Source: Octopus vulgaris | Lineage: Eukaryota | NCBI GenBank assembly: GCA_951406725.2 | Contig: OX597842.1 | Span: 14,570,001-14,634,000 of the forward strand | Length of the DNA: 64,000 nt | Direction of reading: 5' to 3' | Shown here: piece after piece, positions 22,947 to 61,885 of the stretch | How the letters are laid out: every line of letters begins with the position of its first letter | Numbering within the stretch: the first letter of the stretch is position 1 | Notes under the pieces: generated by a model | What the model was told of the DNA's origin: nothing | What the model saw: only the letters and a program-made list of their open reading frames with translations | Databases searched by the model: none | Translations under genes and position numbers: made by a program

Positions 22947-23018
22947 GAGTTTTGGCGGTAATAATTTTACTGAAATCCAACCAGAAACCTTCCAATATTT
23001 GACCAATTTAACTACTCT
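22947..23018 (+). CDS. LRR exon A2: SFGGNNFTEIQPETFQYLTNLTT(L)
   Basis: 72 nt, ttgcag| ... ct|gtaagt, phase 2-2, open frame, 24-aa typical-class LRR. Confidence 0.92.
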
Positions 23019-23689
23019 GTAAGTTAAATCAATCTTCATTGACAGTATATCATTGCCGATATATTTCCAAGCTTGTAATTTCGCTCATTCTCTTCACCAC
23101 CAACATCATCAGCATCAACACCATGTTCATCATCACTATAAACATGCAAATCCCTATTCACCTGTGTCTATCATTCGGTATGGATATTATGTCTGGTGTT
23201 TACGCTAAATAACATGCTTCAATACCGATGGCATTTGTACGTTTAGAACTACGTCATTTATAAAACTCATTTATAAAATTCTTCTTGGACATATTCTTCT
23301 TCCTTTCTTCTTCTTTTCTTCTCCTACTTATTTTTCACCTCTCTCTCTTCTTCTTTAACTTCTACATCCACTTCATCTTCATTACCTCCTCCTGCACTTC
23401 CTTTCTCTTCTTCTTCTTATTCCTCCTCTTTTTCTTCTTCTTCTTCTTCTTTTCGTCATTTTCGTTTCCTTCATTTCATCATATTAGTTATAATCTCCTT
23501 CTACATATTCTTCGTCTCCGTTTTCTTCTTCTACTTCCTCTACGTATTGTTTTAATGTTGTTGATTTGATGTTGTTTTTGTCCTACCATTCTTGTTTTTC
23601 TTTCTCTTCTTCTACATCTTATCGTTCTGCTCTTCCTCATTTTTCTTCTTCTTCTTCTTCTTCTTCTTTTTCTTCTTTTTCTTCTTCTT

Positions 23690-25081
23690 CTGTTCTTTCA
23701 TATGTTTATTGTCCCCAAATGTGCGTATTGTCCGTCTATGTTAGACCCTTGTAGGTAATTAAAAATCGGATAAGTGTTGGGCGATGGGGAGAGTTAGAGA
23801 TGAGAGTTGGGTGATGTGAACAGTTGGTGTGAGGTCAGACGACGAAGAATGGCATACAGTGTGGATTTGTCAACGAAGACATTGGTGTAATGATGCCATG
23901 TGAGGAGTCGAAATGAACCTGACAACGAAGAACCACATTACGCAAATAATCCGGCTGGGTATGCCTACTTCTTCCACTTTAATCAAATTTGCTTGCTGGG
24001 CTGCGCCCCGGATGCCGCATTTCGCAACATCATTTCCTAAATTTAAGATATTTATTGTTACAGTTATATTGATATTAGCTGATTTAGTAACAGAATGACA
24101 GTTAATTATTGCATGTCTATATTACGTTTACCATTAAAAGTGATATCGTTAGACTAATTAAACTGCAGATAATTACGAGATCCGCTTAAATTGCTTGACT
24201 CTGAAATTACGTAAATGAAACATGTAAAATAGTCCGGTATTATGAAACGTATTTTTATTAAAGACGTCATTGGTAAAATAAACCCGATACATTTTTAGAA
24301 ATAAAAAGACATTAGTTATAATTCTACAAAATACTTTAAGCTTAAGATTTAGCTGATCTGTCTGTTACAGTTCAACTGAAATGTACCCTAGATTGTACAG
24401 AGTGGGTTTGACTCTTCCTGAGTATTATTTCAGATTAAAGGATTTGTATTACATTGCATTAATCGTTCTGACTTCAAATTCCGCAGAAGTCGACTTTACC
24501 TTTCATCCTTTCGGATGTATTACCGCTAAAAGTCTATCTATGTCTGCTCGGAAATACATAGGCACCTGAAGCAATTAGTAAAAGCTTTAGATATGTTGCC
24601 AAGACATACTCGCTCGACTAGCGATTTAAGGATGGCTATGAATGTGTGTGCGAATGTGTAAATCTTGAGTGAGTATCTTCTATTCGGTAGGTTACCAGGC
24701 GGTGGATAATGGAACAGCCTGTAAATATAGGGATTACGTCAAACAAGGGACTACTTTGTTGTCGCAAACACAGCTGCCCTTTGGCTCAGCGTATCACCCA
24801 TCTTCCACTCAATCTATGGTTACAGGCAAAGCCGTGGGAAACAATATGACAGTATCAGTGAGAAAGTCATCCATTAGCCAATGGTGACAATGATACGAAG
24901 CTAGACAAAGGGACTTCTGTATAGTTTCCGAAATGTATTACCGCTAACGCTTTTAGACTTAGCTAACATAGATGTTATGAAACTAACGAATAATGCAAAT
25001 AATTATAACTATAATTATTTCTTCATCAGGTATCGATTTTGGCGGGGATAGTCAAAGGGCACAATCGGTTGTGGCCCAAAC
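23690..25081. repeat. Intronic block X, copy 3 (~1.4 kb internal deletion)
   Basis: Matches X up to ~24514 and resumes at taaaagtctatctatg. Confidence 0.92.
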
Positions 25082-26108
25082 TATTTTTACTATTATTATT
25101 ATTATTGTTATTATTATTTTCTCCTTGTTTTTGTCATTTTTTTCTTCTTCTGCTTCTTCTTCTTCTTCTTCTTCTGCTTCTTTTTCTTTTCTTCTTCTTC
25201 TTCTTCTTGTTTTTCTTCTTGTTTTTCTTGTTCTTTTTCTTCCTCTTCTTCTTCTTCTTCTTTTTCTTCTTCTTCTTTTTCTTCTTCTTCTTTTTCTCTT
25301 TGTCTTCTTCTTCTTCTTCTTCTTCTTCTTCTTCTTCTTCTAATTTTTCTTTTGCACTATCTTCACACTCATATTTTTTCCACTCTTATTCATTTTTATT
25401 TTTTTATCTTCTACTTTGCATCTGTCATCGTCTTCTTCTTTTCATCATTTTCCTTTTCTTCGTTTCATCATTTTAGTTATCTTCTCCATCTGCATATTCT
25501 TTCTCTCCGTTTACTTCTTCTACTTCCTCTAATTATTGTTTTTAATGTTGTTGATTTTGTGCTAATTGTCTTCTTTTTCTTTCTTTTCTTCCACTTTGTA
25601 TCTTCCTGCTCTACTTTTTCTTCTTTTTCTTCTTCTTCGTCGTTCTTCATTTCTAATCGCTCTTTTTTATATTCCATTTCGTCTGCTTTTTCGTCATCTT
25701 CATATTTTTCTTCTACTTTTTTTTATTCTCCTTCTTACCGATTTTCATTTACTTCTCTTTCATTATCAATTTCGTTCCCATCATCATTACCGACATTATT
25801 ATCCGCAACACTTTTCTTTCTCTCAGTTTTCAATATTTTCAGGCTCATAATTACCTTTATCATTAACTTTATTCATTACCAAACACTACCGCAATAAGTT
25901 AGCTTTATCATCAACTTTATTCATTACCATATCCTACCGCAGTGAGTTGCACCCACTTGAACATCATCATCATCGTTATTATCAATTTCAACAGAACCGT
26001 AATCAACTCTTCATGATTTCAATAGTATAATTCCTTGCTCAAAATATGTTATATACTTCCAAAAACCTGTTCCATAAAGTTTCATCCTAACTCAATTTTA
26101 TGTTCCAG

Positions 26109-26180
26109 GGGTTTGTGGCGTAATAATGTAACTGAAATCAAACCAGAAACCTTCCAATATTTGACCAATTTAAAGTATCT
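26109..26180 (+). CDS. LRR exon A3: GLWRNNVTEIKPETFQYLTNLKY(L)
   Basis: 72 nt, ttccag| ... ct|gtaaga, phase 2-2. Confidence 0.92.
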
Positions 26181-26465
26181 GTAAGATAAATCAATCTTCA
26201 TTTATAGTATATCATTGCCGATATATTTCCATGTTTGTAATTTCGCTCACTCTCGTCATTTTCCTTTCACCCGGTATTATATGTTCATCATCATCGACAA
26301 GAGAAACTTCGCCGCCATCATCATCATCATCATCATTATCAATTTCAACAGAACCGTAATCAACTCTTCATGATTTCCATAGTTTAATTCCTCACTCGTT
26401 TTTTTGTTTATACTTCCAAAAACATGTTCCATAAAGTTTCATCTTAAATCAATTTTACGTTCCAG

Positions 26466-26537
26466 GGAATTGTGGGGTAATAATCTCACTGAAATCAAAC
26501 CAGAAACCTTCCAATATTTGACCAATTTAAAAAGTCT
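26466..26537 (+). CDS. LRR exon A4: ELWGNNLTEIKPETFQYLTNLKS(L)
   Basis: 72 nt, ttccag| ... ct|gtaagt, phase 2-2. Confidence 0.92.
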
Positions 26538-27258
26538 GTAAGTTAAATCAATCTTCATTTATAGTATATCATTGCCGATATATTTCCATGTTTGTAATTT
26601 CGCTCACTCTCGTCATTTTCCTTTCACACGGTATTATATGTTCATCATCATCGACAAGAGAAACTTCACCACCAACATCATCAGCATCAACACCATGTTC
26701 ATCATCACTATGAACATACAAATCCCTATTCACCTGTGTCTATCATTCGGTATGGATATTATGTCTGGTGTTTACGCTAAATAACATGCTTCAATACCGA
26801 TGACATTTGTACATTTAGAACGACGTCATTTATAAAACTCATTTATAAAATTCTTCTTGGACTTATTCTTGTTCCTTTCTTCTTCTTTTCTTCTCCTACT
26901 TATTCTTCACCTCTTTCGCTTCTTCTTTAACCTCTACTTCCACTTCATCTTCATTACCTCCTCCACCTCTTCCTTGCTATTCTCCTTCTTACTCCTCCTC
27001 TTTTTCTTCGTCTTCTTTTCGTCATTTTCGTTTCCTTCATTTCATCATATTAGTTATTATCTCCTACATATACTTCGTCTCCGTTTTCTTCTTCTACTTC
27101 CTCTACTTATTGTTTTAATGTTGTTGATTTGATGTTGTTTTTGTCTTACCATTCTTGTTTTTCTTTCTCTTCTTCTACATCTTATCGTCCTGCTCTTCCT
27201 CATTTTCCTTCTTCTTCTTCTTCTTCTTCTTCTTCTTCTTCTTCTTCTTCTTCTTCTT

Positions 27259-29600
27259 CTGTTCTTTCATATGTTAATTGTCCCCAAATGTGCGTAATGT
27301 CCGTCTACGTTAGACCTTTGTGGGTAATTAAAAATCGGATAAGAGTTTGGCGATGGGAAGAGTTAGAGATGAGAGTTGGGTGATGTGAACATTTGGTGTG
27401 AGGTCAGACGAAGAAGAACTGCATACAGTGTGGATTTGGCAACGAAGACATCGGTGTAATGATGCCATGTGAGCAGTCGAAATGAACCTGGCTTGCTGGG
27501 CAGCCCCCCGGATTCCGCATTTCGCAACATCATTTCCTAAATTTAAGATGTTTATTGTTACAGTTATATTGATATTAGCTGATTTAGTAACAGAATGACA
27601 GTTAATTATTGCATGTCTATATTACGTTTACCATTAAAAGTGATATTGTTAGACTAATTAAACTGCAGATAATTACGAGATCCGCTTAAATTGCCTGACT
27701 CTGAAATTACGTAAATGAAACATGTAAAGTAGTCCGGTATTATGAAACTTATTTTTATTAAAGACGTCATCAGGAAAAATTTAGGTTGATATCATAAACC
27801 CGATAATTTTTAGATATAAAAACACGTTAGTTATAATTCTACAAAATACTTTAAGCTTAAGATTTAGCTGATCTGTCTGTTACAGTTCAACTGAAAAGTA
27901 CCCTAGATTGTACAGAGTGTTTTCGACTCTTCCTGAGTATTATTTCAGATTAAAGGATTTGTATTATATTGCATTAATCGTTCTGACTTCAAATTCCGCC
28001 GAAGTCGACTTTGCCTTTCATCCTTTCGGGATCGATAAATTAAGTAACAGTTGCGTACTAGGGTCGATCTTATTGACTCTCCTTCCTCCAAAATTTCGGG
28101 TCTTGTGCCTACAGTAAAAAAAACTTATATGGAATTAAATATTTCAAGTTTCCAGATTAAATAAAATATTAAAATACTATATTCGATTAATTCAAGCGAA
28201 TTCACTTGCTTCTCTACACATTTGGGATTGTCTGAATTAAATAGAACTCCATATATCTGCAGATGGTGAATATACGATATATATTATTTAGAAATTTTAA
28301 ATTTTCGTAGTTTAATTCATAATTTAATCAAAAATTGGCCGATTATGCAAGCCGTGGAGTTGAATGACACCTTGTGGTTTTTAATCTTGCATTCGGTATT
28401 CTGACTTAAAATCTAGCAGAGGACGTCCTTAACTTACGTCTTTCTGCGTACCTAAAGAGACCAGTGGTCTAGACAAAGTGTAGGGACGTGGGGCTGGGTC
28501 TCGAATGGAACTTTTCTAGCTCTTTGTATTTTAAGTTGAAATCACACTTGATTTTACTATCTGCGTTTTGAAGAGGTAGTAGAGCTCATTAATTTCGCTG
28601 GTTGTGTGATATGGGTGAGAGTGATGATGGTAATGCTCCGTTTAAATTATTACAGATAAATTTGCGCCGGAATGAAGACAAGAACATGGAGGACATTCCA
28701 GAAGCCGATGTTCTGATGATGAAGAACTAAACATAGCGGTTAATATTACTGAAGGAATGTTAATAAAAAGAGTGGTCTTACTTTAGTTACTTGAGCATCA
28801 AAAAGTGGGAGTTGTTGAGGGATGAAATATTTTCAGGTTCTAAAATGAAAAAAAAAATGTCTCTTAAATTCAGTCCTAGATATACATCACCTATAGTGAT
28901 GTTCTTCTTCAAAAGTGACTTCGTTGATGATCAAAAGAGATGAGAATCCATCATGGTTGCCAGAATCCTTAGATTTTTAGATGTTTTAGCGTGAAAAGAT
29001 GTTGGACATTATTCAAGAGACAACTTTGAATTTCTTGTCAGGCATTTTATGATATTCTATCATTTCCTGCAATCTGTTCCCATCTCCGTGACTTTAGCCT
29101 CAGCCAATAGATTAAATCTGAGCTGAGATGTTTTGACTGTTAAAACTGCCATAGCACTGGATATGATTTGAGCGTGGATCCAGTGACTTCTTGATGAGAG
29201 GGAAAAACTGTTTTGGGCTGCATTTGAGCTGTTGGTATCAGTTTCTACTTGTAGTACCTCAGTATGTGTGAAAGATGTGATACAGTGATGTGCATGTCAC
29301 TGCACGATCATAATGTGATTGGTTCAGTTCTTTAACTAAGCTCGGTGTTTGGGACGTTGATCAGGATTGATCCAGTCTACATAGTTGTCAAGTGTTGGAT
29401 GCGACAGCTGGGTTAGGGTTAGGGTTCGAGATATAAAAGTCTATCTATGTCTGCTCGGAAATACATAGGCACCTGAAGCAATTAGTAAAAGCTTTAGATA
29501 TGTTGCCAAGACATACTCGCTCGACTAGCGATTTAAGAATGGCTATGAATGTGTGTGTGAATGTGTAAATCTTGAGTGAGTATCTTCTATTCGGTAGGTT
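27259..29600. repeat. Intronic block X, copy 4 (3' truncated; the unit lost its exon)
   Basis: Joins directly to post-exon intron sequence at 29600. Confidence 0.92.
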
Positions 29601-34796: not shown

Positions 34797-34862
34797 TCAC
34801 CTCCGTCTCTTTCATCTTCGACCTCTTCATTATGCTCTTCTTCTTCTTCTTCTTCTTCTTCT

Positions 34863-34909
<47 letters not shown>

Positions 34910-34919
34910 TTCATATTCT

Positions 34920-34969
<50 letters not shown>

Positions 34970-35752: not shown

Positions 35753-35824
35753 AAACTTTGGTGATAATGCCATCACGGAAATCAAACCTAACGTCTTCCG
35801 AAATTTGTCAAGTTTAGAAGCTCT
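35753..35824 (+). CDS. LRR exon B1: NFGDNAITEIKPNVFRNLSSLEA(L)
   Basis: 72 nt, ttaactcaattttctgtttcag| ... ct|gtaagt, phase 2-2. Confidence 0.92.
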
Positions 35825-36190
35825 GTAAGTTGAATTAGTTTTCTCCTTTAGTATTCCATTGACGATATATCTCTCAATGTGTAATATGTACCCATCGTTC
35901 ATTTAAGATCTCTCACACAAACTTACATACAGGTATATTCTTTTTTGTGAATTTGAGAGTGTGAGTATGGGTCGATTTCTGAAATTTTGGATATGTGCGG
36001 TCACGATGCATGCCGGAACCCATTTATTGCATGCATGTGTATAGCTCTGAGTTTGTTAACTATTTTTCCTTTTCTCTATCTGAACTGTTTTCTTGTTTGC
36101 GAAATACTGCGAATGTTGTAGAGGTCCATTCTTGAGATTTCAGTGTGTGACAATTCAAGGGAAACATGTAGTGCAAGTGTTATGTCAGTG

Positions 36191-36296
<106 letters not shown>

Positions 36297-36349
36297 GTGC
36301 CTGTGTGTGTTAGTGTATGTGTATATATATATATATATATATGTATATA

Positions 36350-36405
<56 letters not shown>

Positions 36406-36721
36406 TTTATATATATATATCTACATAATGGTGTTGGCCATTTGTGGTTGTGTGTCTACGTGTCTGTTTATCTATGGATATGTGTATGCAAGTGTATGAA
36501 AATTTACTAGTAATTCGGTCTCTATATCAAGGACGGTATTTATATTTCAATCATTATCATCATCATCATCATCATCATCATCTCTTCTTTATGGATAGTA
36601 ACAACCTTATATTTTCACCTCTACCTCATATAATATTCATCACTATAAATATCACAACTACCACCATCCCTATCACCATAGTTTTCTTTTCCCCCTTCCC
36701 ACTCATCGTCCTCCTATCGTC

Positions 36722-36789
36722 CTGGGTTCTAATGACATCAAGGAAATCAAAGCTGACACCTTCCGAAATTTGTCCAGGTTAAAATATCC
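36722..36789 (+). pseudogene. Dead LRR exon: LGSNDIKEIKADTFRNLSRLKY
   Basis: LRR frame intact, but the acceptor/polypyrimidine region is deleted and the donor is changed from ct|gtaagt to cc|ctaaat; downstream intron is homologous to that of B1/C. Confidence 0.85.
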
Positions 36790-38046
36790 CTAAATTGAAT
36801 CAGTTTTCTTCTTCAGTATTTCATTGACGATGTCTTTCTAAATCTGTTTTATGTGCACATATTGTATTTAGGCTCCGTCACCCGTCCTTCAAAAGAAGAT
36901 ATTTATTGATCGTGAATTTGAGAGTGTGCGTGTGGGTTCATTTCTGAAATATGGGATATATACAAAGCGCAAATTTACTCTGACCACACTACGGATATTA
37001 CATGTATATTTGTATGTGTGTGTGTGTGTGTGTGTGTGAGCAGTGGTGCGTCTGGTTGTGTGCTTGTGTGTTTGTTTGTGTATAGATGCGGGTATTCGAG
37101 TACATCAAAATATATGTGTAATTAGATCTGGGTATCATCTACATTATTGAAATCTCTATCGTCATAGAATATTAATACTTGTTTCAGTTTTTCTTGTCTT
37201 TACCTTTATTTTCTTCTCCTTCATCTTCTTTTTCGTCTTCTTCCCCTCCTACTCCTATACTTGAGCCTCCTCCTCCTTCTACTATTCTTCTTCTTGTTCT
37301 TCGTTTCGTGTGTGTAAAAATTCTCTTTCTTGAGTTCTTCATAAGAGTTTCTCAATCTCAATCATCCGCTGAGTTCTCTTTTCCTCAAAAATCTCTACAA
37401 TTTAATTCGCCTCAATTAGTGCCGTGATAATTATTGACGTCTCCCTCTCCATCCTCATCACCGTCATTATTCTCATCTTCGTTGTTACCTTTCTCAAACA
37501 TAAACATCGTCAACTTTATCGTCGCCCTCGTCATCATCGTTATCATTGATTACCAAAAAGCACCACGGTAGGAATACTCAACCTCCTGGTCATCCTGATC
37601 ATAGATAACAGACACATTACCATCATCGTCATCATCCTCAATATCAGATCCATATTCACCATTTAAATGCTAATCCCCTATCATTATCATAACAATCAGC
37701 ATTAACAACATCACTCTGATCATCATCACCTCAATATCTTCATCAACTTTACCGCCATAGATTTTTACATTCTGGTTCATTCTCATATTAATGACTGTCA
37801 AGACCAGATATTCTACAACTAAATCTATCAGCACAGGTTTCCGACCTCCTCCTCCTCCTCTCTTCCTTCTTCTCCCTCCTTCGACTTATTGTCATCATCA
37901 TCAACATCATTGTCGACAACGTCCTCTGCAACAATCTAATCGTCATCGTGATTAGATGTTCATCCTTTCCTTCCTGTAACTGTTTACCCAAAATTATGTC
38001 ATAAATGTCTCACAAAATTGCTTCTTAACTCAATTTTACTTTCCAG

Positions 38047-38118
38047 AATCTTGTATAATAATGATATCCAAGTAATAAAACCTGGCACCTTCCAATATTT
38101 ATCCAGTTTAAGATTACT
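38047..38118 (+). CDS. LRR exon C1: ILYNNDIQVIKPGTFQYLSSLRL(L)
   Basis: 72 nt, ttccag| ... ct|gtaagt, phase 2-2. Confidence 0.92.
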
Positions 38119-38836
38119 GTAAGTTGAATCAGTTTTCTTCTTTAGTATTTCATTGTCTAAATCTCGCTCAATCTGTAATGTGAACCCATCTTTCGTTTAA
38201 GCTTCCTCAAGCATCCTTCCAAACCAGAGTTTATTGTTTATGAATTGGAGTGAGTGTGGATCTATTTCTTAAATATTGGATATGCGAGTTCACGATACAA
38301 GATGGAACCCATTTATTGCATGCATGAGCATATGTCTTAGTATTTTTACAATTATACTCCATCCGAACTGTTTGTTGTTTGTGAATCACTGATAATGTTG
38401 TGGGGGGCCATTCTTGGTATTTCGGATATATCAGTGTGTGACAATTGAACGGAGACTTTTAGTGCAAGTTGTATCTGTGCATTTCTGTTATATCTTCTGT
38501 AATGGACTGGAATATCTATGTTTCGAATTTCATCAAAATTGCAGATGAGGGTTGTATTAATGACTGTCAAGACCATATTAATGACTGTCAAGACCACATA
38601 TTCTACAGCTAAATCTATCAGCACAGGTTTCCGACCTCCTCCTCCTCCTCTCTTCCTTCTTCTCTCTCCTTCGACTTATTTTCATCATCATCAACATCAT
38701 TGTCGACAACTTCATCTGCAACAATCAAATCGTCATCCTGATTTGATGTTCATCCATTCCTTCATGTAACTGTTTACCCAAAATTATGTCATAAATGTCT
38801 CATAAAATTGCTTCTTAACTCAATTTTATGTTCCAG

Positions 38837-38908
38837 AGACTTATCTTGGAATGGCATCACAGAAATCAAAGATGACACCTTCCAATATTTGTCCAGTTTA
38901 ACAGAACT
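38837..38908 (+). CDS. LRR exon C2: DLSWNGITEIKDDTFQYLSSLTE(L)
   Basis: 72 nt, ttccag| ... ct|gtaagt, phase 2-2. Confidence 0.93.
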
Positions 38909-41508: not shown

Positions 41509-41990
41509 AGATAAGACAGTAAGGTGTGATTTGAGGAAGATTTGGCTGCTATTTCTACCATGTCTAGCTGCCATGTAGGGGTCTCCCTCATAGGCTCATA
41601 CATACATATATACATAGATAAGACAGTAAGGTGTGATTTGGGGGAAATTTGGCTGCTATTTCTACCAGGTCTAGCTGCCATGTAGGGGTCTCCCTCATAG
41701 GCTCATACATACATATATACATAGATAAGACAGTAAGGTGTGATTTGGGGGAAATTTGGCTGCTATTTCTACCAGGTCTAGCTGCCATGTAGGGGTCTCC
41801 CTCATAGGCTCATACATACATATATACATAGATAAGACAGTAAGGTGTGATTTGGGGGAAATTTGGCTGCTATTTCTACCACGTCTAGCTACCATGTAGA
41901 GGTCCCCCTCATTGGCTCATATATATATACATACATAAGACAGTAAGGTGTGATTTGAGGGAGATTTGGCTGCTGTTTCTACCAGGTCTG
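41509..41990. repeat. 107-bp tandem repeat, ~4.5 copies
   Basis: Unit agataagacagtaaggtgtgatttgggggaaatttggctgctatttctaccaggtctagctgccatgtaggggtctccctcataggctcatacatacatatatacat; inner copies are identical. Confidence 0.95.
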
Positions 41991-44898: not shown

Positions 44899-44911
44899 AG
44901 TCTGTGAATAA

Positions 44912-44961
<50 letters not shown>

Positions 44962-44967
<6 letters not shown>

Positions 44968-46090: not shown

Positions 46091-46143
<53 letters not shown>

Positions 46144-49100: not shown

Positions 49101-49632
49101 TTTTTCTTCTTATTCGTCATATTCTTCCTCTTATTCTTTCTTTCATTTCCTACCCTATGTCCTTCTGCGTATCTTAATTTATGTCTAACCACTTCCCCTT
49201 CATAATTCTTTTTTTCTCCTGCTTTGGTTGTGTGTGTATGTGTCTGTTTGTGTATTGCTTAACATTCTAGACTTCTATTTCTGCTTCTTCTTCTTCATCG
49301 TCCCCATCCTCCTTCTTCATCCTTCTTCTCGCTCCTCCTCATCTTATTCTTTTTTCTTCTTCTTTGCTTCTTCTCCTCCTCCTACTCCTACTTATACTTC
49401 TACTTATACTTGTTGTCGTTGTTGTTCTGCTCATTCTTCCTTGTCTTTTTACTCGTCTACATTTTTCCTTCTGATTCTTCATATCCTTCCTTTCTCTTAT
49501 TCTTCGATTTCATTTTCTTCACACTCTCCTCTGCATCTATCAATTTATCTCTCCCCGCTTCCCCTTCCTCATTGTTCTTTTTATCCGGCTTTTACTTTTC
49601 TTGCCTCTTCTACTCATTGCCGTTGTTGTAGC

Positions 49633-49681
<49 letters not shown>

Positions 49682-50250
49682 CTTGTTCTTCTTCATCTTC
49701 TTGTTCTCCTCCCCCTCCTCCCCCTCCTCCTCCTTCTTCTTCTTCTGCTGCTTCTGCTCCTGCTGCTTCTTCTTCTTCCCTTTCCTTTTGTTGTCATCGT
49801 CTTCTTTCGCCTCTTTTTCCTTTCGCAATTTATTTTGTTTTCCTTCTGCTCTTCTTTTTCTGTCTCTCCTTCTTCTTTGTCATCTTCTTCTTGTTGCTGC
49901 TTTTCTTCTTCATCTTTTACTTCTGCTACTCCTTCGTTTCGTCTAGTTCTTATTTTTCTACTCCTCCTCCTTCAACTCTTCATTCTCTCCTTTCTTTTTG
50001 TTCTTCCTCTACTACATCTCCTCTACTTTCCTTCTTTTTCCTCTTCTATTCCTTCTTTTTCTGTTATTTTCCGTCTTCTTCTGTTCTCTTCCTTCCTCCC
50101 CTCCTCTTCATATTCTTCCTTCTCGCCGTCCCTCTCATCATCATCTCCATTTAAATTTCTTAATTATATCTAATTTTTTCGCCATAATATTTAACATTTT
50201 GTCACTAATCTTTTCTATATGTTTGTTATGAACTCCGTTTTATGTTACAG

Positions 50251-50322
50251 GAATTTGAATGACAATAATATCACGTATATTCAACGCGGTACCTTCGAAA
50301 ACCTTCCGAATTTAGAAGAACT
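50251..50322 (+). CDS. LRR exon D1: NLNDNNITYIQRGTFENLPNLEE(L)
   Basis: 72 nt, gttacag| ... ct|gtgagt, phase 2-2. Confidence 0.92.
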
Positions 50323-50696
50323 GTGAGTTGTGTCGCTTTTGTTCGTACCATCTATTTCCCCATATATCTACATTGTTAATATCTTCTCCAACTTTGTTTT
50401 TTTCTCTCTCTCTTTCAAGAGTGTATCTATCTAACACCCGTTCACTCTCTCCATAGTTTTCTCTGAGTGTATGTGTGAATGCGTGTTTGTGAAAGTGTAG
50501 GTGTGTGGATGAATGAGCTTCTTTTTTACTTACTTCTTATGCATAGGTAATCATGTTCTTGTTTATAAACATCCGTTTACCTAATATTTAAATTCTCATT
50601 ATTCAACTATATTCCATCATTTTTTCTCGTTGTTTACTTTTTTATTCTAGTTTTCTAAGTTTATCTTTTAATCTTCATATGTTTTTGTGTATGGAT

Positions 50697-51450
50697 GTAC
50701 AGATACCGAGTATATCAGAAAAAAGTGTCCAAATTTTAGATACAAATTCGAAACGTTGTGTCTCAGTATTACTTAAAGGTAACAGAAGTATCAGCGGCTT
50801 TTCTTACACAAATGGGCCATATTTTGAGCAAGACGAAATGTGAGTTCCTCTCCAAGCTCTCATGAATAATCATGAATGAATTGGCGAAGATGAAATTCTA
50901 TGTTTTAACATAGCTCAGGATTGGGAGCTCATGAAATACTGGAATAAAGTCCAAACGGAAGGTTTTAAAGTGATATTTGAAAGATTGAGTAAGAATTCTG
51001 GCCAAACCCTTGGATTTTAGGCATCATGAGTTACTCCTTGTTTGACAAAGACTTTATCAACCCTTTTCCTGCCTTACCACAAAATTTCTTATGGAAGTTC
51101 TCATCAATGTCCTATTCACACGACCTAAGAATGGATGTTTCGAGGGCTTTCAGATAGGTGTGGGGCTACTCACAAACATTTTTATGATCAGTTCATGCCA
51201 GATGCTGACGTCTAAAGTGCTCAAACCAGGGGATGAATGAGGCCAAGTGTCCTTATCCTAAAACCTTTTCGCAAACTCATCCATGGGAAACACTTGTCTC
51301 ACTACACTTGTGTCACAAGGAACATCATCTTACCATCAGAGATCATGCATTTGAAAAGTATCACTTAGTCAGGTTTTTGCCCCTAAAATGACATTATTAC
51401 TTTCTCGTGAGCTGAAGCGAGAACTCAGCTGTCGCGTCAGTTTGTGCGCA
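50697..51450 (-). mobile_element. Tc1/mariner transposase C-terminal relic, repeated in each D unit (~52835, 54990, 57183)
   Basis: Minus strand gives W*DDVPCDT (QDGAPAHT-like) and TWPHSSPGLSTLDVSIW (WPPSSPDLNPLD..IW-like). Confidence 0.7.
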
Positions 51451-51785
51451 TATCGAGGGTGAATATCCTTCTTCTCGCTCCTCCTCATCTTATTATTTTC
51501 TTCTTCTTCTTCTTTGCTTCTTCTTCTCCTCCTACCTCTACTTATACTTCTACTTGTAGTTGTTGTCGTTGTTGTTGTTGTTCTTCTTCTTCCTTGTCTT
51601 TTTACTCGTCTACATTTTTCCTTCTGATTCTTCATATCCTTCCTTTCTCTTATTCTTCAATTTCATTTTCTTCACACTCTCCTCTGCATCTATCAATTTA
51701 TCTCTCCCCGCTTCCTCTTCCTCATTGTTCTTTTTATCCGGCTTTTACTTTTCTTGCCTCTTCTACTCATTGCCGTTGTTGTAGC

Positions 51786-51819
<34 letters not shown>

Positions 51820-52388
51820 CTTGTTCTTCTTCATCTTCTTGTTCTCCTCCCCCTCCTCCCCCTCCTCCTCCTTCTTCTTCTTCTGCTGCTTCTGCTCCTG
51901 CTGCTTCTTCTTCTTCCCTTTCCTTTTGTTGTCATCGTCTTCTTTCGCCTCTTTTTCCTTTCGCAATTTATTTTGTTTTCCTTCTGCTCTTCTTTTTCTG
52001 TCTCTCCTTCTTCTTTGTCATCTTCTTCTTGTTGCTGCTTTTCTTCTTCATCTTTTACTTCTGCTACTCCTTCGTTTCGTCTAGTTCTTATTTTTCTACT
52101 CCTCCTCCTTCAACTCTTCATTCTCTCCTTTCTTTTTGTTCTTCCTCTACTACATCTCCTCTACTTTCCTTCTTTTTCCTCTTCTATTCCTTCTTTTTCT
52201 GTTATTTTCCGTCTTCTTCTGTTCTCTTCCTTCCTCCCCTCCTCTTCATATTCTTCCTTCTCGCCGTCCTCTCATCATCATCTCCATTTAAATTTCTTAA
52301 TTATATCTAATTTTTTTCGCCATAATATTTAACATTTTGTCACTAATCTTTTCTATATGTTTGTTATGAACTCCGTTTTATGTTACAG

Positions 52389-52460
52389 GAATTTGAATGA
52401 CAATAATATCACGTATATTCAACGCGGTACCTTCGAAAACCTTCCGAATTTAGAAGAACT
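52389..52460 (+). CDS. LRR exon D2 (identical to D1)
   Basis: 72 nt with the same splice sites. Confidence 0.85.
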
Positions 52461-53922
52461 GTGAGTTGTGTCGCTTTTGTTCGTACCATCTATTTCCCCA
52501 TATATCTACATTGTTAATATCTTCTCCAACTTTGTTTTTTTCTCTCTCTCTTTCAAGAGTGTATCTATCTAACACCCGTTCACTCTCTCCATAGTTTTCT
52601 CTGAGTGTATGTGTGAATGCGTGTTTGTGAAAGTGTAGGTGTGTGGATGAATGAGCTTCTTTTTTACTTACTTCTTATGCATAGGTAATCATGTTCTTGT
52701 TTATAAACATCCGTTTACCTAATATTTAAATTCTCATTATTCAACTATATTCCATCATTTTTTCTCGTTGTTTACTTTTTTATTCTAGTTTTCTAAGTTT
52801 ATCTTTTAATCTTCATATGTTTTTGTGTATGGATGTACAGATACCGAGTATATCAGAAAAAAGTGTCCAAATTTTAGATACAAATTCGAAACGTTGTGTC
52901 TCAGTATTACTTAAAGGTAACAGAAGTATCAGCGGCTTTTCTTACACAAATGGGCCATATTTTGAGCAAGACGAAATGTGAGTTCCTCTCCAAGCTCTCA
53001 TGAATAATCATGAATGAATTGGCGAAGATGAAATTCTATGTTTTAACATAGCTCAGGATTGGGAGCTCATGAAATACTGGAATAAAGTCCAAACGGAAGG
53101 TTTTAAAGTGATATTTGAAAGATTGAGTAAGAATTCTGGCCAAACCCTTGGATTTTAGGCATCATGAGTTACTCCTTGTTTGACAAAGACTTTATCAACC
53201 CTTTTCCTGCCTTACCACAAAATTTCTATGGAAGTTCTCATCAATGTCCTATTCACACGACCTAAGAATGGATGTTTCGAGGGCTTTCAGATAGGTGTGG
53301 GGCTACTCACAAACATTTTTATGATCAGTTCATGCCAGATGCTGACGTCTAAAGTGCTCAAACCAGGGGATGAATGAGGCCAAGTGTCCTTATCCTAAAA
53401 CCTTTTCGCAAACTCATCCATGGGAAACACTTGTCTCACTACACTTGTGTCACAAGGAACATCATCTTACCATCAGAGATCATGCATTTGAAAAGTATCA
53501 CTTAGTCAGGTTTTTGCCCCTAAAATGACATTATTACTTTCTCGTGAGCTGAAGCGAGAACTCAGCTGTCGCGTCAGTTTGTGCGCATATCGAGGGTGAA
53601 TATCCTTCTTCTCGCTCCTCCTCATCTTATTATTTTCTTCTTCTTCTTCTTTGCTTCTTCTTCTCCTCCTACCTCTACTTATACTTCTACTTGTAGTTGT
53701 TGTCGTTGTTGTTGTTGTTCTTCTTCTTCCTTGTCTTTTTACTCGTCTACATTTTTCCTTCTGATTCTTCATATCCTTCCTTTCTCTTATTCTTCAATTT
53801 CATTTTCTTCACACTCTCCTCTGCATCTATCAATTTATCTCTCCCCGCTTCCTCTTCCTCATTGTTCTTTTTATCCGGCTTTTACTTTTCTTGCCTCTTC
53901 TACTCATTGCCGTTGTTGTAGC

Positions 53923-53971
<49 letters not shown>

Positions 53972-54544
53972 CTTGTTCTTCTTCATCTTCTTGTTCTCCT
54001 CCCCCTCCTCCCCCTCCTCCTCCTTCTTCTTCTTCTGCTGCTTCTGCTCCTGCTGCTTCTTCTTCTTCCCTTTCCTTTTGTTGTCATCGTCTTCTTTCGC
54101 CTCTTTTTTTCCTTTCGCAATTTATTTTGTTTTCCTTCTGCTCTTCTTTTTCTGTCTCTCCTCCTTCTTTGTCATCTTCTTCTTGTTGCTGCTTTTCTTC
54201 TTCATCTTTTACTTCTGCTACTCCTTCGTTTCGTCTAGTTCTTATTTTTCTACTCCTCCTCCTTCAACTCTTCATTCTCTCCTTTCTTTTTGTTCTTCCT
54301 CTACTACATCTCCTCTACTTTCCTTCTTTTTCCTCTTCTATTCCTTCTTTTTCTGTTATTTTCCGTCTTCTTCTGTTCTCTTCCTTCCTCCCCTCCTCTT
54401 CATATTCTTCCTTCTCGCCGTCCCTCTCATCATCATCTCCATTTAAATTTCTTAATTATATCTAATTTTTTTTCGCCATAATATTTAACATTTTGTCACT
54501 AATCTTTTCTATATGTTTGTTATGAACTCCGTTTTATGTTACAG

Positions 54545-54616
54545 GAATTTGAATGACAATAATATCACGTATATTCAACGCGGTACCTTCGAAAACCTTC
54601 CGAATTTAGAAGAACT
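54545..54616 (+). CDS. LRR exon D3 (identical to D1)
   Basis: 72 nt with the same splice sites. Confidence 0.85.
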
Positions 54617-56737
54617 GTGAGTTGTGTCGCTTTTGTTCGTACCATCTATTTCCCCATATATCTACATTGTTAATATCTTCTCCAACTTTGTTTTTTTCTC
54701 TCTCTCTTTCAAGAGTGTATCTATCTAACACCCGTTCACTCTCTCCATAGTTTTCTCTGAGTGTATGTGTGAATGCGTGTTTGTGAAAGTGTAGGTGTGT
54801 GGATGAATGAGCTTCTTTTTTACTTACTTCTTATGCATAGGTAATCATGTTCTTGTTTATAAACATCCGTTTACCTAATATTTAAATTCTCATTATTCAA
54901 CTATATTCCATCATTTTTTCTCGTTGTTTACTTTTTTATTCTAGTTTTCTAAGTTTATCTTTTAATCTTCATATGTTTTTGTGTATGGATGTACAGATAC
55001 CGAGTATATCAGAAAAAAGTGTCCAAATTTTAGATACAAATTCGAAACGTTGTGTCTCAGTATTACTTAAAGGTAACAGAAGTATCAGCGGCTTTTCTTA
55101 CACAAATGGGCCATATTTTGAGCAAGACGAAATGTGAGTTCCTCTCCAAGCTCTCATGAATAATCATGAATGAATTGGCGAAGATGAAATTATATGTTTT
55201 AACATAGCTCAGGATTGGGAGCTCATGAAACATTGGAATACATTTCAAATGAAAGGTTTTAAAGTTATATTTGAAACATTGAGTAAGAATTCTGGCCAAA
55301 CCCTTGGATTTTAGGCATCATGAGTTACTCCTTGTTTGCCAAAGACTTTATCAACCCTTTTCCTGCCTTACCACAAAATTTCTTATGGAAGTTCTCATCA
55401 ATGTCCTATTCACACGACCTAAGAATGGATGTTTCGAGGGCTTTCAGATAGGTGTGGGGCTACTCACAAACATTTTTATGATCAGTTCATGCCAGATGCT
55501 GACGTCTAAAGTGCTCAAACCAGGGGATGAATGAGGCCAAGTGTCCTTATCCTAAAACCTTTTCGCAAACTCATCCATGGGAAACACTTGTCTCACTACA
55601 CTTGTGTCACAAGGAACATCATCTTACCATCAGAGATCATGCATTTGAAAAGTATCACTTAGTCAGGTTTTTGCCCCTAAAATGACATTATTACTTTCTC
55701 GTGAGCTGAAGCGAGAACTCAGCTGTCGCGTCAGTTTGTGCGCATATCGAGGGTGAATATCCTTCTTCTCGCTCCTCCTCATCTTATTATTTTCTTCTTC
55801 TTCTTCTTTGCTTCTTCTTCTCCTCCTACCTCTACTTATACTTCTACTTGTAGTTGTTGTCGTTGTTGTTGTTGTTCTTCTTCTTCCTTGTCTTTTTACT
55901 CGTCTACATTTTTCCTTCTGATTCTTCATATCCTTCCTTTCTCTTATTCTTCAATTTCATTTTCTTCACACTCTCCTCTGCATCTATCAATTTATCTCTC
56001 CCCGCTTCCACTTCCTCGTTGTTCTTTTTATCCGGCTTTTACTTTTCTTGCCTCCTCTACTCATTGCCGTTGTTGTTGTTGTTGTTGTTGTTGTTGTTGC
56101 TGTTCTCCTTCTTATTCTTCTTCTTCTTCTTCTTCTTCTTCTTCTTCTTCTTCTTCTTCTTCTTCTTCTTCTTCTTCTTCTTCTTCTCTATATTTTTCCT
56201 TTTTGTTTTCATAAATTTTCTTCCTGTTCTCTTTTGTTGTCATCGTCTTCTTTCGCCTCTTTTTATTTATTTTGTTGTTTTCCTTCTGCTCTTCTTTTTC
56301 GTTCTCTCGTTCTTCTTTGTCATCTTCTTCTTCCTTTCTTCTTCTTCTTCTTCTTCTTCTTCTTCTTCTTCTCTCTTCTGCTACTCTCTCTTCTTCTTCT
56401 TCTTTTCTTCTTCTCTTCTTTCGTCTCGTCTAGTTCTTATTTTTCTACTCCTCCTCCTTCAACTCTTCATTCTCTCCTTTCTTTTTGTTCTTCCTCTACT
56501 ACATCTCCTCTACTTTCCTTCTTTTTCCTCTTCTATTCCTTCTTTTTCTGTTATTTTCCGTCTTCTTCTGTTCTCTTCCTTCCTCCCTCCTCTTCATATT
56601 CTTCCTTCTCGCCGTCCCTCTCATCATCATCTCCATTTAAATTTCTTAATTATATCTAATTTTTTTCGCCATAATATTTAACATTTTGTCACTAATCTTT
56701 TCTATATGTTTGTTATGAACTCCGTTTTATGTTACAG

Positions 56738-56809
56738 GAGATTGAATGACAATAATATCACGTATATTCAACGCGGTACCTTCGAAAACCTTGCGAATTT
56801 AGAAAAACT
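56738..56809 (+). CDS. LRR exon D4: RLNDNNITYIQRGTFENLANLEK(L)
   Basis: 72 nt, gttacag| ... ct|gtgagt; 4 nt differences from D1, all non-synonymous. Confidence 0.92.
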
Positions 56810-58789
56810 GTGAGTTGGGTCGCTTTTATTCTTACCATTTATTTCCCCATATATCTACATTGTTAATATCTTCTCCAACTTTGTTTTTTTCTATCTCTCT
56901 TCCTAGAGTGTATCTATCTAACACCCGTGCACTCTCTCCATAGTTTTCTCTGAGTGTATGTGTGAATGCGTGCTTGTGAAAGCGTAGGTGTGTGGATGAA
57001 TGAGCTTCTTTTTTACTTACTTCTTAAGCATAGGTAATCATGTACTTGTTTCTAAACATCCGTTTACCTAATATTCAAATTCTCATCATTCAACTATATT
57101 CCATCATTTTTTCCCTTTGTTTACTTCTTTATTCTAGTTTTCTAAGTTTATCTTTTAATCTTCATATGTTTTTGTGTATGGATGTACAGACACCGAGTAT
57201 ATCAGAAAAAAGTGTCCAGATTTTAGATACAACTTCGAAACGTTGTGTCTCAGTATTACTTAAAGGTAACAGAACTATCAGCGGCTTTTCTAACACAAAT
57301 GGACCCTATTTTGAGCAAGACGAAATGTGAGTTCCTCTCCCACCTCTCATGAATAATCATGAATGAATTGGCGAAGATGAAATTATATGTTTTAACATAG
57401 CTCAGGATTGGGAGCTCATGAAACATTGGAAGAAAGTTCAAATGGAAGGTTTTAAAGTTATATTTGAAAGATTGAGTAAGAATTCTGGCCAAACCTCTGG
57501 TTTTGAGGCATCATGAGTTACTCCTTGTTTCACAAAGACTTTATCAACCCTTTTCCTGCCTTACCACAAGATTTCTTATGGAAATTCTCATCAATGTCCT
57601 ATTTTAACGTCCGGGTAAGTGTGGGGCTACTCACAAACTTTTTTACGATCAGTTCATGCCAGATGCTGACGTCTAAAGGGCTCAAACCAGGTGATGAATG
57701 AGGCCAAGTGCCCTTATCCTAAAACCTTTTCGCAAACTCATCCATGGAAAACATTTGTCTCACTACACTTGTGTGACAAGGAACATCCTCTTACCATCAG
57801 ATATCATGCAGTTGAAAATTATCACTTAGACACTTTTGGCTTTCTCGTGAGCTGAAGCCAGAACTCAGCTGTCGCTTCAGTTTGTGCGCATATCTTGGGT
57901 GAATATCTTCTCATCTCTGTGAAATATCTCTCGAAAGTTGTGTTTCACTTTGTCGCAGATGAACTTCGCCCACTCCAATCTTCTAAACTTTTGTCCTGGA
58001 GTATCAAGACTCCTCACAATTTTCATATGCGATTTCATTTTCACATCTTCTGTCACCAGATGCCAATAATCTTATGGATTGATTTGGATCTCTTCAGCTC
58101 CAGATTGAAATGATCCTTCTTGAGGTTATGACCTCCTTATGTAGCTTTCCTCTCCACTATTCCATCATTCTCAAACGTACACACAATTGTCTTGATAATT
58201 ATTGAATGGGCATTGAAGATGGAATCTAGAGAATGAATTTCGATACCATTACTGAAGGACTGAATGGTTTTAACCCTCTCAACCTTGCTCAGTCGGGTGT
58301 GGCTGACACAAAACTATTTCATTCTGTTACCTTTCTAGCTAAATATCTCAAATGGTATTTCACTGATTCTTATAAAAACGTGTGTCAGTATGTCCAGCCA
58401 GCTTATGTGCAAAACATGTAACAAAAAGCAAAAAGTGTGTTAGTTTAAAATTTTTCAAGAGTGTTTGAGCATGGCAGTTTTGCTGTTACATATGTTATAT
58501 ATTTATGTCTAAGTATATGTGCGAGTGCGTGTGAATGTATCAAATCTTAACCTATTCTCCATCATCATCATTAGAAACTTCACTAGCACGAACGTCAACA
58601 TGAAAATCATCATCATTATCTTCAATAATTATCCTCATTAGAATCATTATCACAATCAGCACCAGCAACATTTTCTTCAACACTACCACATTCTTCCTGT
58701 CTTAAGACTCAAAACTATGTACGACGACGACGTTTGGCACCACCACCTCTCCTCCTCCTCCTCCCCTTCACCAACACCACCATCAGATT

Positions 58790-59420
58790 CTCTTGTGAAA
58801 AGAAGCTGCGAAAAAGCGACACCAAATCAGATGAAAATATAAAAACGAACTCTAGTGACTTCTACAGATTTCAAAAGTATTTACCTTAGTGCGCTACAGC
58901 CTATGGCCAGGAGGATAAGCGAAATACTCAATTAACAATTCGCAAATGCTTTCAATTCCTCATTAGAAAATATGCAAATAAGCAAGCTTGATAAGTTCCT
59001 ACAGAAAAGAAAGTAAACATCTGTTATTTCGATGTGAACTTAGTCACAGCTCTAATGGTTTTCTAGGAATGCTTTTAAAGATTTGCAAGAAAGCCCTTCC
59101 AGAACGACTGCAGATACTTTTCCAGAGCTTCCGTACATTTTGGCAAACATTCCAAAGTGTTAGAAGATAGGTTATATTGATGAAGAAGGAGGTAGAGAAA
59201 ACTCTAAATATTACAGGTATAATTCTCTGATCTCACATATTAGGCAAGTTATGAGACTCGTTGTCGGAAAGTAGTTGATTACATTTCGAGAACAAAACCT
59301 ATTCACTAACATACAGAATGGCTTCTGTCCAGGAAGGAGTTGTCTTACTCAGCAGCTACTGCAAAGTGACTGGGTACTGAAACAACAGGTGAACTTTTCA
59401 AATATGGATGATATCTGGAC
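58790..59420 (+). mobile_element. Decayed LINE reverse transcriptase fragment (CR1/Jockey-like)
   Basis: YRYNSLISHIRQVMRLVV..NLFTNIQNGFCPGRSCLTQQL resembles YRPISL..QHGFR.GRSCLTQL. Confidence 0.7.
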
Positions 59421-59799
59421 ATCAATATTCCAACATCAGCCATCTTTAACCAGTCTGCAATTAACATGTTAATGGTTTTAATTTGTTGTCAAATATTTCA
59501 ATGTGCGTAGATTTGTAATATTAACAGATTTTCTTGCAGTCAGAACCTTGTGGGGGTGACCAAATATATATTATATCATGATTGCCAGAGTAGAAGCTTC
59601 ATTATTACTTTAAGACTTTTGGAAGAACACCTGTTAATGAAACAATGTGGATATTAGTTAGTTCTAAATGATGCTTAGTTTTGTCATTAACCGAATGCCA
59701 CAAAGTTTTTGACCATTTTTGACCAATAGCAGTACTGTGTATTGTATAACTAGAATTTAATTTGAAAGTACTTTTTTAGTATGTTGGCATCCGGATTCA

Positions 59800-60880
59800 G
59801 TAAATGTATCATGTTTCAAAACAAGAGAAGAAATTTGTACAGTTTTGAAATATGAGTTCTCTCTTGGAAATACAACATCACTGACAGCTCGGAATATTAA
59901 TGGGGAATTTCATTCTAATGTTATTACACAGCAAACAGTATCAAATTGGTTTGCAAAATCTAGTTCTGGTAAATTTGATCTTACAAATGAGCAATGCGGT
60001 CGACCAGAAACAAAGTTGGATATTTTCGAACTGAAAGCAACCGTCGAGTCTGATCCATCTCAAAGTGCCTGTGAATTATTGTTGTTGTTTTGTGTTAGCA
60101 AACAATATTGACTCACCTAGTTCAAATCGGTAAAGTGAAAACGTTGGATAAGTGGCTTCGACATGTATTCAATAAAAATCAGAAATAACAACGTTTGGAA
60201 GCCTACATTATGCTAGTTTCTCATCGCAAAAAAGAATTATTTTTGAATCAGATTGTAACGTGATGAGAAATCGATCTAATGCCTCAACTGTAGAGGTTAA
60301 CCACAATGGCTGCACCAAGATGAGCCACCAAAACACAGTCCAAAACGGAAAAGAAGCTGATGGTGTGTGTTTGGTGGTCTGGTCCAGGTGTGATCCGTTA
60401 TGGTTTCATTACCCCTGGCTCATTAATCTCAGCCGAAGTACACTGCAGCCAGCTGGAACAAATGATGCAGAAAAGTACAAAAAACAACCTAGATTAGTCA
60501 ACAGATCAATCCTATTTTACTGCAAGACATCGCCGGATTACACATCGAAAACATAACTCTGGCGAAACTACAGGGTTTCGAGTTGGAAGCTCTCCTTCAT
60601 CTACCTACTCACCCGATATTGCCCCCACTGACTACCACATCTGTCAGAATTTCACTAACTTTTTGTTAGGAAAAAAATTAATTCCGATGATTCTGTAAAA
60701 CAAGCCTTCCAGGAATTTATTGTCTCTAGACTGCCAGGCTTTTACAGTTCCGGGCTGCACAGGCTACCGCTGAAATGGCAAAAGTGTATTGAAAATATGG
60801 GTGCATATATTGAAGAATAAAACTATTCCTTGTATTTAAAAAAACATTGGTTTTTTATAATTTTCATACTTGACGACCTA
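59800..60880 (+). mobile_element. Near full-length decayed mariner (Mos1-like) transposase
   Basis: YEFSLGN..TARNIN..TVSNWFAK..GKFDLTNEQCGRP, KLMVCVWWS, and YSPDIAPTDYHI (YSPDLAPSDYHL motif); many stops and frameshifts. Confidence 0.85.
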
Positions 60881-61041
60881 TTATGAAAGATATATATGTT
60901 TTACAAAACAGTTTAGAGACAAACATTAATTCCTACATATATTTTGAATATGTTTCTTAAAGTTGTGAATTGGTGTTAAGATAAGTGTTTTAATTATTCA
61001 TGATTAATTTTTGCAATTTCGTCATTATATTGCTCTTCGAA

Positions 61042-61479
61042 TCTCTCTCTATATAAACGGCAGTTTGTCTGTCTGTGTCTGTGTGTCTGTCAGGTTGTAC
61101 CCTCACCCTGACCACGGCTTTCAACCGATTCTGATGAAACTTGACACACACATAGCCCAATATCATAATTCAAAACTAACGCAGTGAACATTTTGAAAAG
61201 TTCCCCCAGTTCTGAAAAAAATCGATAAATTCGACATGGGGTCGAGAATCTAAGCTTTTTATATGCAACACATTTTCTGTCTAGGGGACACAACTCGACC
61301 TTTTTATCGCCCAAAGGGACAGCTAGGAACATCGTATACACAGAAGTATTCGAGTGAAGAGAAGACATTGCAACCTACACATGCGCCTTCGTTCCCAAGA
61401 GGGAAATTACTAGATTGGGATTAGTCGTTGCCTACTAGGGGCTCTTACATACCCGGGCAACGCCGGGCTATGCTGCTAG
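61042..61479 (+). mobile_element. Non-autonomous Helitron
   Basis: A|TC..., 3' cccgggcaacgccggg hairpin then CTAG|T. Confidence 0.8.
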
Positions 61480-61813
61480 TATATAATATTTGTACATTCG
61501 GTGAGAATGTGATGTAAAACCAACATCCTGCACAAAACAATGTCTCGATGTCTTGTTATTCTTATAGCTTATTTTCGTCCATCTTTTGTTAATCGGTTAT
61601 CACAGAAACCTTCTCTTCCCTCAGGATATCTAAGTGAGATTAATGGAAACTACTCTTGTCCAAACTATAGGCAGAAAACTCATAGAGAAATAAACATCTT
61701 TGCAGTAAACATGAGCTTTTATTTGCTTAGTTTAGACAGTATATTAACAGTAGAAAACAGACTTATTAATTGTACATATTCTAACTTATAGAATACTTAT
61801 TTCTTTTTTCCAG

Positions 61814-61885
61814 ATATTTGAGCAACAACCAAATACAAAACTATGAGGATGGCGCGTTCTTATTCCTTCCCAGTATTAATCAAAT
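61814..61885 (+). CDS. LRR exon E (single copy): YLSNNQIQNYEDGAFLFLPSINQ(I/M)
   Basis: 72 nt, strong acceptor ttcttttttccag| and donor at|gtatgt, phase 2-2; the gene continues beyond the window. Confidence 0.9.

Follow-up and report, generated by a model that had tools for sequence, protein, structure and literature searches.

The stretch of Octopus vulgaris DNA analyzed here (64,000 nucleotides, referred to as the window; G000:C29:14570001-14634000 within the 2.8-Gb genome) contains the 5′-portion of a gene with a tandem array of leucine-rich repeat (LRR) exons. To judge by its sequence, the gene codes for an Octopus LRR adhesion G-protein-coupled receptor (GPCR) comprising a signal peptide, LRRs, a GAIN/GPS region and a 7tm_2 domain, and is a member of a large family. 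Its LRR exons are modular units with breakpoints in the introns, their number ranges widely between related genes, and in the first of two sets of loci the residues of the strand face exhibit an excess of amino-acid replacements; in addition, spliced transcripts were found that include the exons in series. The probable explanation, in our opinion, is a turnover of exons in the germline combined with positive selection, and some skipping, in the LRR array of an octopus adhesion GPCR. Animals likely carry different inherited receptor sets, rather than a switch of the kind known from Dscam or from the variable lymphocyte receptors (VLR). The novel features are the wide spread of exon numbers among related genes and the fact that these genes evolve most rapidly at the strand residues; the split strand itself was known, and a mid-strand splice is by itself no news.

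By means of a profile made from nine window exons, 13 LRR modules were detected in the window, all on the + strand: 11 intact exons, one pseudo-exon and one dead copy. Each of the 11 intact exons, which lie within 22947-61885 and are named below by their first position, is 72 nucleotides long, in phase 2, free of stop codons and bounded by AG and GT. The intron invariably follows the second base of the codon for position 4 (LxxL|xLxxN), the third base opening the next exon. The initial annotation had placed the splice in the middle Leu of this motif, which holds for 11/11 window exons, and its examples LTTL|GLWRN and LTTL|ELWGN are indeed obtained by joining 22947 to 26109 or 26466. All 66 forward joins of exon 1 and the 11 LRR exons are in frame with Leu at the junction; they give 46 distinct strand decapeptides, and the 11 adjacent joins give 10. 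The strand positions are shared unevenly, the upstream exon supplying positions 2-3 and the downstream exon positions 5, 7, 8 and 10. Two relatives were folded by single-sequence AlphaFold2, thus without alignments, and their exon borders were deduced from isoforms that lack 24 residues at the same site. In P0004 (mean pLDDT, the predicted local distance difference test score, 73) the strands extend from position 3 of the repeat across position 4, and P0075 (mean pLDDT 59, about 70-90 over the repeats) has three-residue strands at positions 3-5. According to these models, the Leu-4 codon, which the intron splits, lies in the middle of a predicted β-strand. Because passages of PMC3530683 and PMC6642158 present such a junction as a general trait of LRR genes, it is not itself a pointer to a combinatorial system.

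Exon turnover was studied in related loci of the genome. Among 40 scored matches of exon 1, 16 showed at least 83% identity and 24 were weaker. The first set of loci comprised 17 arrays with 272 exon matches, 233 of them intact (5-34 per array); some of these arrays were only partly covered by the fetched regions, and the C30 and C31 loci were left out. A second set of six regions gave 131 matches, 122 of them intact, with up to 48 in one array, and in region H3 (C8, 50 kb) no LRR exons were found. The number of intact exons per array in the fetched regions hence ranged from 5 to 48, with a total of 355. As 403/403 profile matches reside on the gene strand and none is inverted, they are not due to chance; 48 of them are broken. 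A non-LRR exon and its flanks are 96-99% identical in the 10 closest paralogs while the arrays vary, and the arrays therefore change much faster than the scaffold. Upstream and downstream flanks indicated compatible kin in 183 of 184 testable exons, one being discordant. Thus, we concluded that the duplication unit is an exon with its flanks, that the breaks lie in introns, and that new neighbors give rise to hybrid strands. Unequal crossover may be the cause of these rearrangements. The view that crossovers mainly take place within the exon cores was rejected, as discordant flanks were met in 1/184 exons. Across 215 junctions, 99 different pairings of the 54 exon types were counted, and 179/215 adjacent-junction decapeptides are distinct. 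The 233 intact exons of the first set start with A (144) or G (89) and end with CT (201), AT (23), TT (8) or GT (1), so that any pairing yields Leu, Ile, Met or Val; one strong donor is common to 128 of them. Among the 122 intact exons of the second set, four start with a pyrimidine.

Some of these loci have peculiarities of their own. A paralog at G000:C8:79128701-79268000 possesses 48 intact LRR exons out of 50 matches and is among the longest arrays fetched. Two arrays, G17 and G8 (G000:C29:14074101-14224100 and 15066701-15183300), exhibit higher-order repeats composed of blocks of two or three different exons, along which the same broken exons have been copied. About 20 places on G000:C30 and C31 contain more distant matches to exon 1 or the last LRR exon (68-86% identical). 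The neighboring paralog B (G000:C29:14450001-14570000) is located on the opposite strand with 5/8 LRR modules intact; its exon 1 was not found in the 120 kb examined, a region containing a 100-base gap. Of 67 protein matches, the 40 best comprised 37 named Octopus and three unnamed ones, and the other 27 had E values of 1e-24 or weaker and included none named Octopus, a statement based on names and not on a tree. Of importance for annotation is that these genes are represented in public databases by fragmentary models bearing the names of unrelated proteins (chaoptin, TLR5, SLITRK4).

To quantify selection, pairs of exons with similar flanks were formed, no exon being used twice. One degenerate G4 exon was excluded beforehand, and of 91 pairs 89 were kept, two with a flank divergence >0.12 being dropped. 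The strand face was defined as positions 2, 3, 5, 7, 8 and 10, the classes otherwise following the usual LRR consensus. The initial annotation had assigned the variable parts to both exon ends, and amino-acid changes in the 89 close pairs do peak there, at positions 3 (40), 5 (32), 8 (29), 7 (24), 2 (21) and 10 (12), all others having ≤11. The ratio of nonsynonymous to synonymous divergence (dN/dS) at the strand face amounted to 4.37 (bootstrap 3.22-6.50), compared to 0.15 in the core and 0.97 at other positions. Both strand halves contributed, positions 2-3 with 5.87 and positions 5/7/8/10 with 3.70. The strand-face value was 5.62 within and 4.06 between genes; the 45 pairs of the window's clade gave 4.80, the 40 pairs outside of it 2.95 (1.37-9.81), and the nine pairs containing a window exon 4.68 (2.60-11.72). 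Synonymous differences were not raised at the strand face (0.042 vs 0.038-0.040). A codon model with a fixed tree of 198 exons, rough in view of the few sites, gave an omega of 2.72 for the strand face, 0.275 for the core and 0.81 for other positions. A partitioned IQ-TREE run had more parameters than sites and printed no omega, and a fixed-parameter comparison also fixed kappa and is not clean. Raised mutation near splice sites was rejected as the cause of the variable ends, since synonymous sites and positions 6, 9 and 1 were not raised. Conversion of exon ends between exon types was likewise dismissed, because cross-cluster sharing is flat along the exon, with 15-mers common to different flank clusters being no more frequent at exon ends than in the core; within types such conversion may occur. 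Point substitutions affecting the strand face contribute strongly to diversity, a fact that the initial annotation had missed.

In the window the array is preceded by exon 1 (10760-10959, + strand, ATG at 10778), which codes for a signal-peptide-like leader and an LRR N-cap and ends in phase 2 within a Leu codon. Its Pfam LRRNT match is weak (E 0.008, below the cut-off), and its identity to six LRR or ADGRG6-like proteins from Octopus amounts to 76-81%, the matches being named Octopus vulgaris and O. sinensis. All following elements are located on the + strand as well. The 70-nucleotide pseudo-exon (18313-18382) has intact splice sites and would shift the frame if included. LRR exon 1 (22947-23018; 72 nucleotides, phase 2-2) shares its core with LRR exon 2 (26109-26180), from which it differs at the ends, and the latter forms a 357-bp tandem duplication with LRR exon 3 (26466-26537). 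These first LRR exons and their introns are carried by a mosaic of recent duplications (13094-34794), mostly 85-97% alike in self-alignment. LRR exon 4 (35753-35824) is followed by the dead copy (36718-36789), which lacks acceptor and donor and has counterparts in paralogs B, G3 and G10, and by LRR exons 5 (38047-38118) and 6 (38837-38908). Four tandem units of ~2.15 kb, 90-96% alike, contain one LRR exon each (49319-57603); the exons 50251, 52389 and 54545 are identical, and 56738 differs. The last 72-nucleotide LRR exon (61814-61885), termed exon E in the initial annotation, is conserved in the family and matched in 39/39 scored genome candidates.

Transcription was inspected in five runs (X1-X5), none of them recorded as RNA, whose contigs were guessed to be of this kind; they stem from other samples with no tissue on record, and the joins reported are those among the matches listed. 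Run X3 is spliced, as evidenced by exon-to-exon GT..AG joins. Its 441-nucleotide contig (depth 3.5) contains five LRR exons one after the other, namely a G4-like exon, 35753, 38047, 38837 and a last-LRR-like exon, to which 38837 is directly joined. The three middle exons showed 0, 0 and 1 differences, respectively, and the last-LRR-like exon one difference in the 30 letters shown. The joins 35824-38047 and 38118-38837 are exact, and the contig passes over the four 50251-type exons. The 35753-like exon of X2 is joined to a 38837-like exon; that of X4, with 5 differences in 52, continues into a 50251-type exon. In X2 and X5, which belong to two studies, exon 1 is joined to 26466-like exons with other first codons, the exon 1 part in X5 (67 nucleotides) being free of differences. 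In X1 and X4, exons of the same type but with new starts are joined one after another. Moreover, in X4 a 26109-like exon precedes a 22947-like exon having another start; this order is reversed relative to the assembly and therefore cannot result from skipping. Back-splicing as an origin of the two order-reversing joints was rejected, since the second exon has another 5′-end and is not the same exon. Of seven LRR exon starts read from the RNA contigs, six do not occur in any of the 403 genomic matches, and four 26466-type RNA exon starts are also absent from 17 genome-wide matches of the shared core. These data show an exon content differing from this assembly. The DNA run X6 revealed, among the joints listed, intronic repeat joints only and is no guide to the genotypes of the RNA donors. 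Three RefSeq models of O. sinensis (XP_029657302.2, XP_036355967.1, XP_036355968.1) and four of O. bimaculoides (XP_052833918.1-921.1), all predictions, differ within each set by single 24-amino-acid repeats at this very boundary, which creates new strand pairings. RefSeq models, presumably built from pooled RNA, comprise at least a dozen consecutive repeats.

The identity as an adhesion GPCR, which had escaped the initial annotation, emerged from 21 further exons past the window (G000:C29:14643201-14689883). They encode an LRR C-cap and Cys-rich, SEA-like, hormone-receptor-like, GAIN, GPS and seven-transmembrane (7TM) stretches, the SEA-like and hormone-receptor-like ones being labeled by eye. 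The last 7TM exon matched Pfam 7tm_2 (E 5e-10; 39.5 bits vs a cut-off of 20.6), and the earlier helices were assigned by tblastn to P0088. The GPS exon and the Pfam-GPS stretch of P0088 share 69% identity, and a His-Leu-Thr motif is present in the gene model. A weak Pfam HRM match was seen on a relative. The Cys-rich stretch had no Pfam or ESM Atlas match, the SEA-like stretch no usable one in ESM Atlas, and Foldseek returned general LRR matches only. A single open frame from the signal peptide to the 7TM region is not found in this assembly. The exon G000:C29:14650201-14650383, located before GAIN, measures 183 nucleotides and is one nucleotide short, resulting in a stop after residue 482. 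With a 221-nucleotide query the 12 next-best matches span 222 nucleotides; therefore, this copy, alone among the 13 best, carries a 1-nucleotide deletion in this assembly. The 18 exons behind it constitute a single open frame of 751 codons. This copy is either a truncated allele or an assembly error. The deletion would leave a secreted LRR and Cys-rich protein of 482 residues. The same exon ends with Cys-Cys-x-Gly-Asn-Leu-Cys-Asn, recalling three-finger (LU) domains, for which no database match was obtained.

Under the explanation that we favor, exons with their flanks would be duplicated and lost in the germline, whereby strand halves are re-paired; positive selection likely changes the strand-face residues on either side of each intron, and shorter variants probably arise in addition when a single exon is now and then skipped, which is also the case in human LRRC37 and NLRP3. 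Several points weigh against it. In the second set of loci (15 pairs) the strand-face dN/dS was 0.80 (0.27-1.83); the signal was not repeated and is therefore not family-wide. The dS estimate rests on 47.7 changes, paralogous exons recombine, and 54 of the 164 strand-face codons that have changed do so at two or three bases, a pattern that might likewise stem from short conversion tracts. The variability per position was known before the site classes were fixed. The RNA contigs are of low depth (3.5-36) and possibly chimeric or derived from unfetched paralogs, and their differences may go back to any of skipping, allele structure, such paralogs or low-depth chimeras, which the data do not separate. 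A decaying tandem array shaped by duplication and gene conversion, with no selected recognition role and this copy being a pseudogene, would be in line with the lack of a signal in the second set, the frameshift confined to this copy, the 48 broken matches and the three identical exons in a row. We hold this to be improbable, however, as in the first set the core omega was 0.15 and the strand-face omega exceeded 1 within and between genes, the 751 codons past the break have stayed open, spliced transcripts exist, and 15-mer sharing across flank clusters is no higher at the exon ends.

Frequent or regulated cassette splicing might instead be the main diversifier, one allele furnishing many LRR combinations per animal. 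The in-frame character of all 66 forward joins, the joins of 38837 to the last-LRR-like exon in X3, of 35753-like to 38837-like exons in X2 and of exon 1 to a 26466-like exon in X5, and the two RefSeq isoform sets with one repeat difference each would suit this idea, and an open frame does require skipping of the pseudo-exon. Yet, among the matches listed, no donor of this locus showed two different joins in one run, and since the joined exons often differ from the assembly, alleles account equally well for them. The RefSeq isoforms are models each dropping one exon of many, and the same strong donor is shared by 128/233 intact exons. We consider this mode unlikely to be the principal one. The initial annotation had envisaged a Dscam- or VLR-like combination. 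Mutually exclusive, Dscam-like choice between near-identical exons by docking and selector sequences is very improbable: the gene has two clusters of near-identical exons, and two runs from two studies have exon 1 joined to a 26466-like exon, but the X3 contig includes five successive LRR exons, same-type exons follow each other in X1 and X4, and RefSeq models have long serial repeats. A crude test for complementarity between 2 kb of intron 1 and the 400 nucleotides upstream of each exon gave 12-mer matches in 2/11 upstream flanks. Somatic assembly or conversion of the array in single cells, as in VLRs, is held to be most improbable. The hypervariable strand face does resemble that of VLRs as described in the passages of PMC3341825, and RNA exon starts are absent from this assembly, but the germline gene is complete and spliceable with all modules inside, inverted exons are lacking (0/403), and allelic variation would account for the RNA. 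Heptamer/nonamer motifs of the usual consensus were found within 300 nucleotides of none of the 11 exons. What stands of the earlier proposal is that gain, loss or skipping of exons re-pairs strand halves, as indicated by flanks moving together, the 179 distinct decapeptides, the RNA joins and the RefSeq isoforms. Instead of adjacent-exon junctions only and no structural variation, we found RNA joins that are non-adjacent or absent in the assembly.

The window also contains repeats. Decayed retroelement-like frames, recognized by eye on both strands, occupy 3012-8076 beside long ATA and TTA microsatellites. A short repeat resembling a short interspersed nuclear element occurs at 13900-14010, 19920-20010, 24460-24515 and 27979-28070 and has a very high contig depth in the runs guessed to be RNA. 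A 107-bp tandem repeat (41509-41989; 4.5 copies, 95% alike) resides in the long intron that separates the LRR exons 38837 and 50251.

Hypervariable LRR receptors with selection on the concave face are immune recognizers in plants and jawless fish and candidates for this role in brown algae, as stated in passages of PMC3341825. The same signature on octopus adhesion GPCRs points to a recognition role of a family which, according to passages of PMC6408891, has so far been read mainly as neural adhesion molecules, and the residues and exons to test are now named. The putative receptors may bind their ligands with the concave face, recognize fast-changing ligands, for which microbial or non-self structures are likelier than a fixed self, and signal via GAIN and 7TM. 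A more far-reaching picture can be offered tentatively: octopuses might possess a polymorphic LRR-GPCR repertoire of dozens of clustered genes, whose faces would vary from one individual to another owing to exon turnover and positive selection and would be recombined further in each animal by skipping-made hybrid strands, and which would link the recognition of microbes or non-self in skin, suckers and gills directly to G-protein signaling.

Among known systems, the best PDB matches of the GAIN-GPS-7TM part of a relative were ADGRG2 (E 2.5e-53) and ADGRG6 (E 1.3e-47). LRRs are also combined with GAIN-7TM in ADGRA (GPR124/125). Vertebrate ADGRG6/ADGRG2 and ADGRA are single-copy genes with fixed ectodomains, whereas in the octopus gene the LRR array is variable and precedes a Cys-rich stretch. 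Dscam1 and agnathan VLRs resemble it in that exchangeable modules change a recognition surface; exclusive exon choice and an incomplete germline gene with cassettes were not found here. A close counterpart is group 3 of Ritschard et al. 2019 (PMC6408891), Octopus-only, co-localized adhesion GPCRs with GPS and 7TM and LRRs in 5/22 sequences, expressed in axial nerve cord, suckers, skin and gills. The passages report branch-level positive selection with a site test that found no selected sites, and do not describe LRR exon arrays or their copy-number range; the likeness in Octopus adhesion-GPCR architecture is one of description rather than phylogeny. In the literature searched, which covered few subscription journals, no paper was found that deals with the turnover of LRR exons or with selection at the level of sites in adhesion GPCRs of octopus, nor did PMC9068888 yield passages on GPCRs or LRRs with the terms used.

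With regard to exon structure, passages on human LRRC37 (PMC3530683) describe a splice junction inside LxxLxLxxNxL, and those on NLRs including NLRP3 (PMC6642158) an exon border at a fixed place in the β-sheet, both together with LRR exon skipping. The octopus gene likewise has frame-preserving exons with the junction at one fixed place in the strand motif, as seen in the 11 window exons and the 355 intact exons of the family. LRRC37, however, has six repeats with reported purifying selection on its LRR exons, from which the octopus strand face differs in the first set, and neither LRRC37 nor the NLRs, as described there, have a GPCR module or anything like 5-48 exons per paralog. The brown-algal ROCO LRR-GTPases, known to us from passages of PMC3341825 and PMC11378527, have 72-nucleotide phase-2 exons, exon shuffling, concave-face selection and splice variants. 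They differ in their cytosolic ROC-COR part instead of GAIN-7TM, in an exon consensus that contains the whole LxxLxLxxN, which the octopus exons split, and in common inverted intronic exons (0/403 here). Both systems have in common one 24-amino-acid LRR per 72-nucleotide phase-2 exon, dead intronic exons and selection on the concave face, the latter in octopus not being repeated in the second set.

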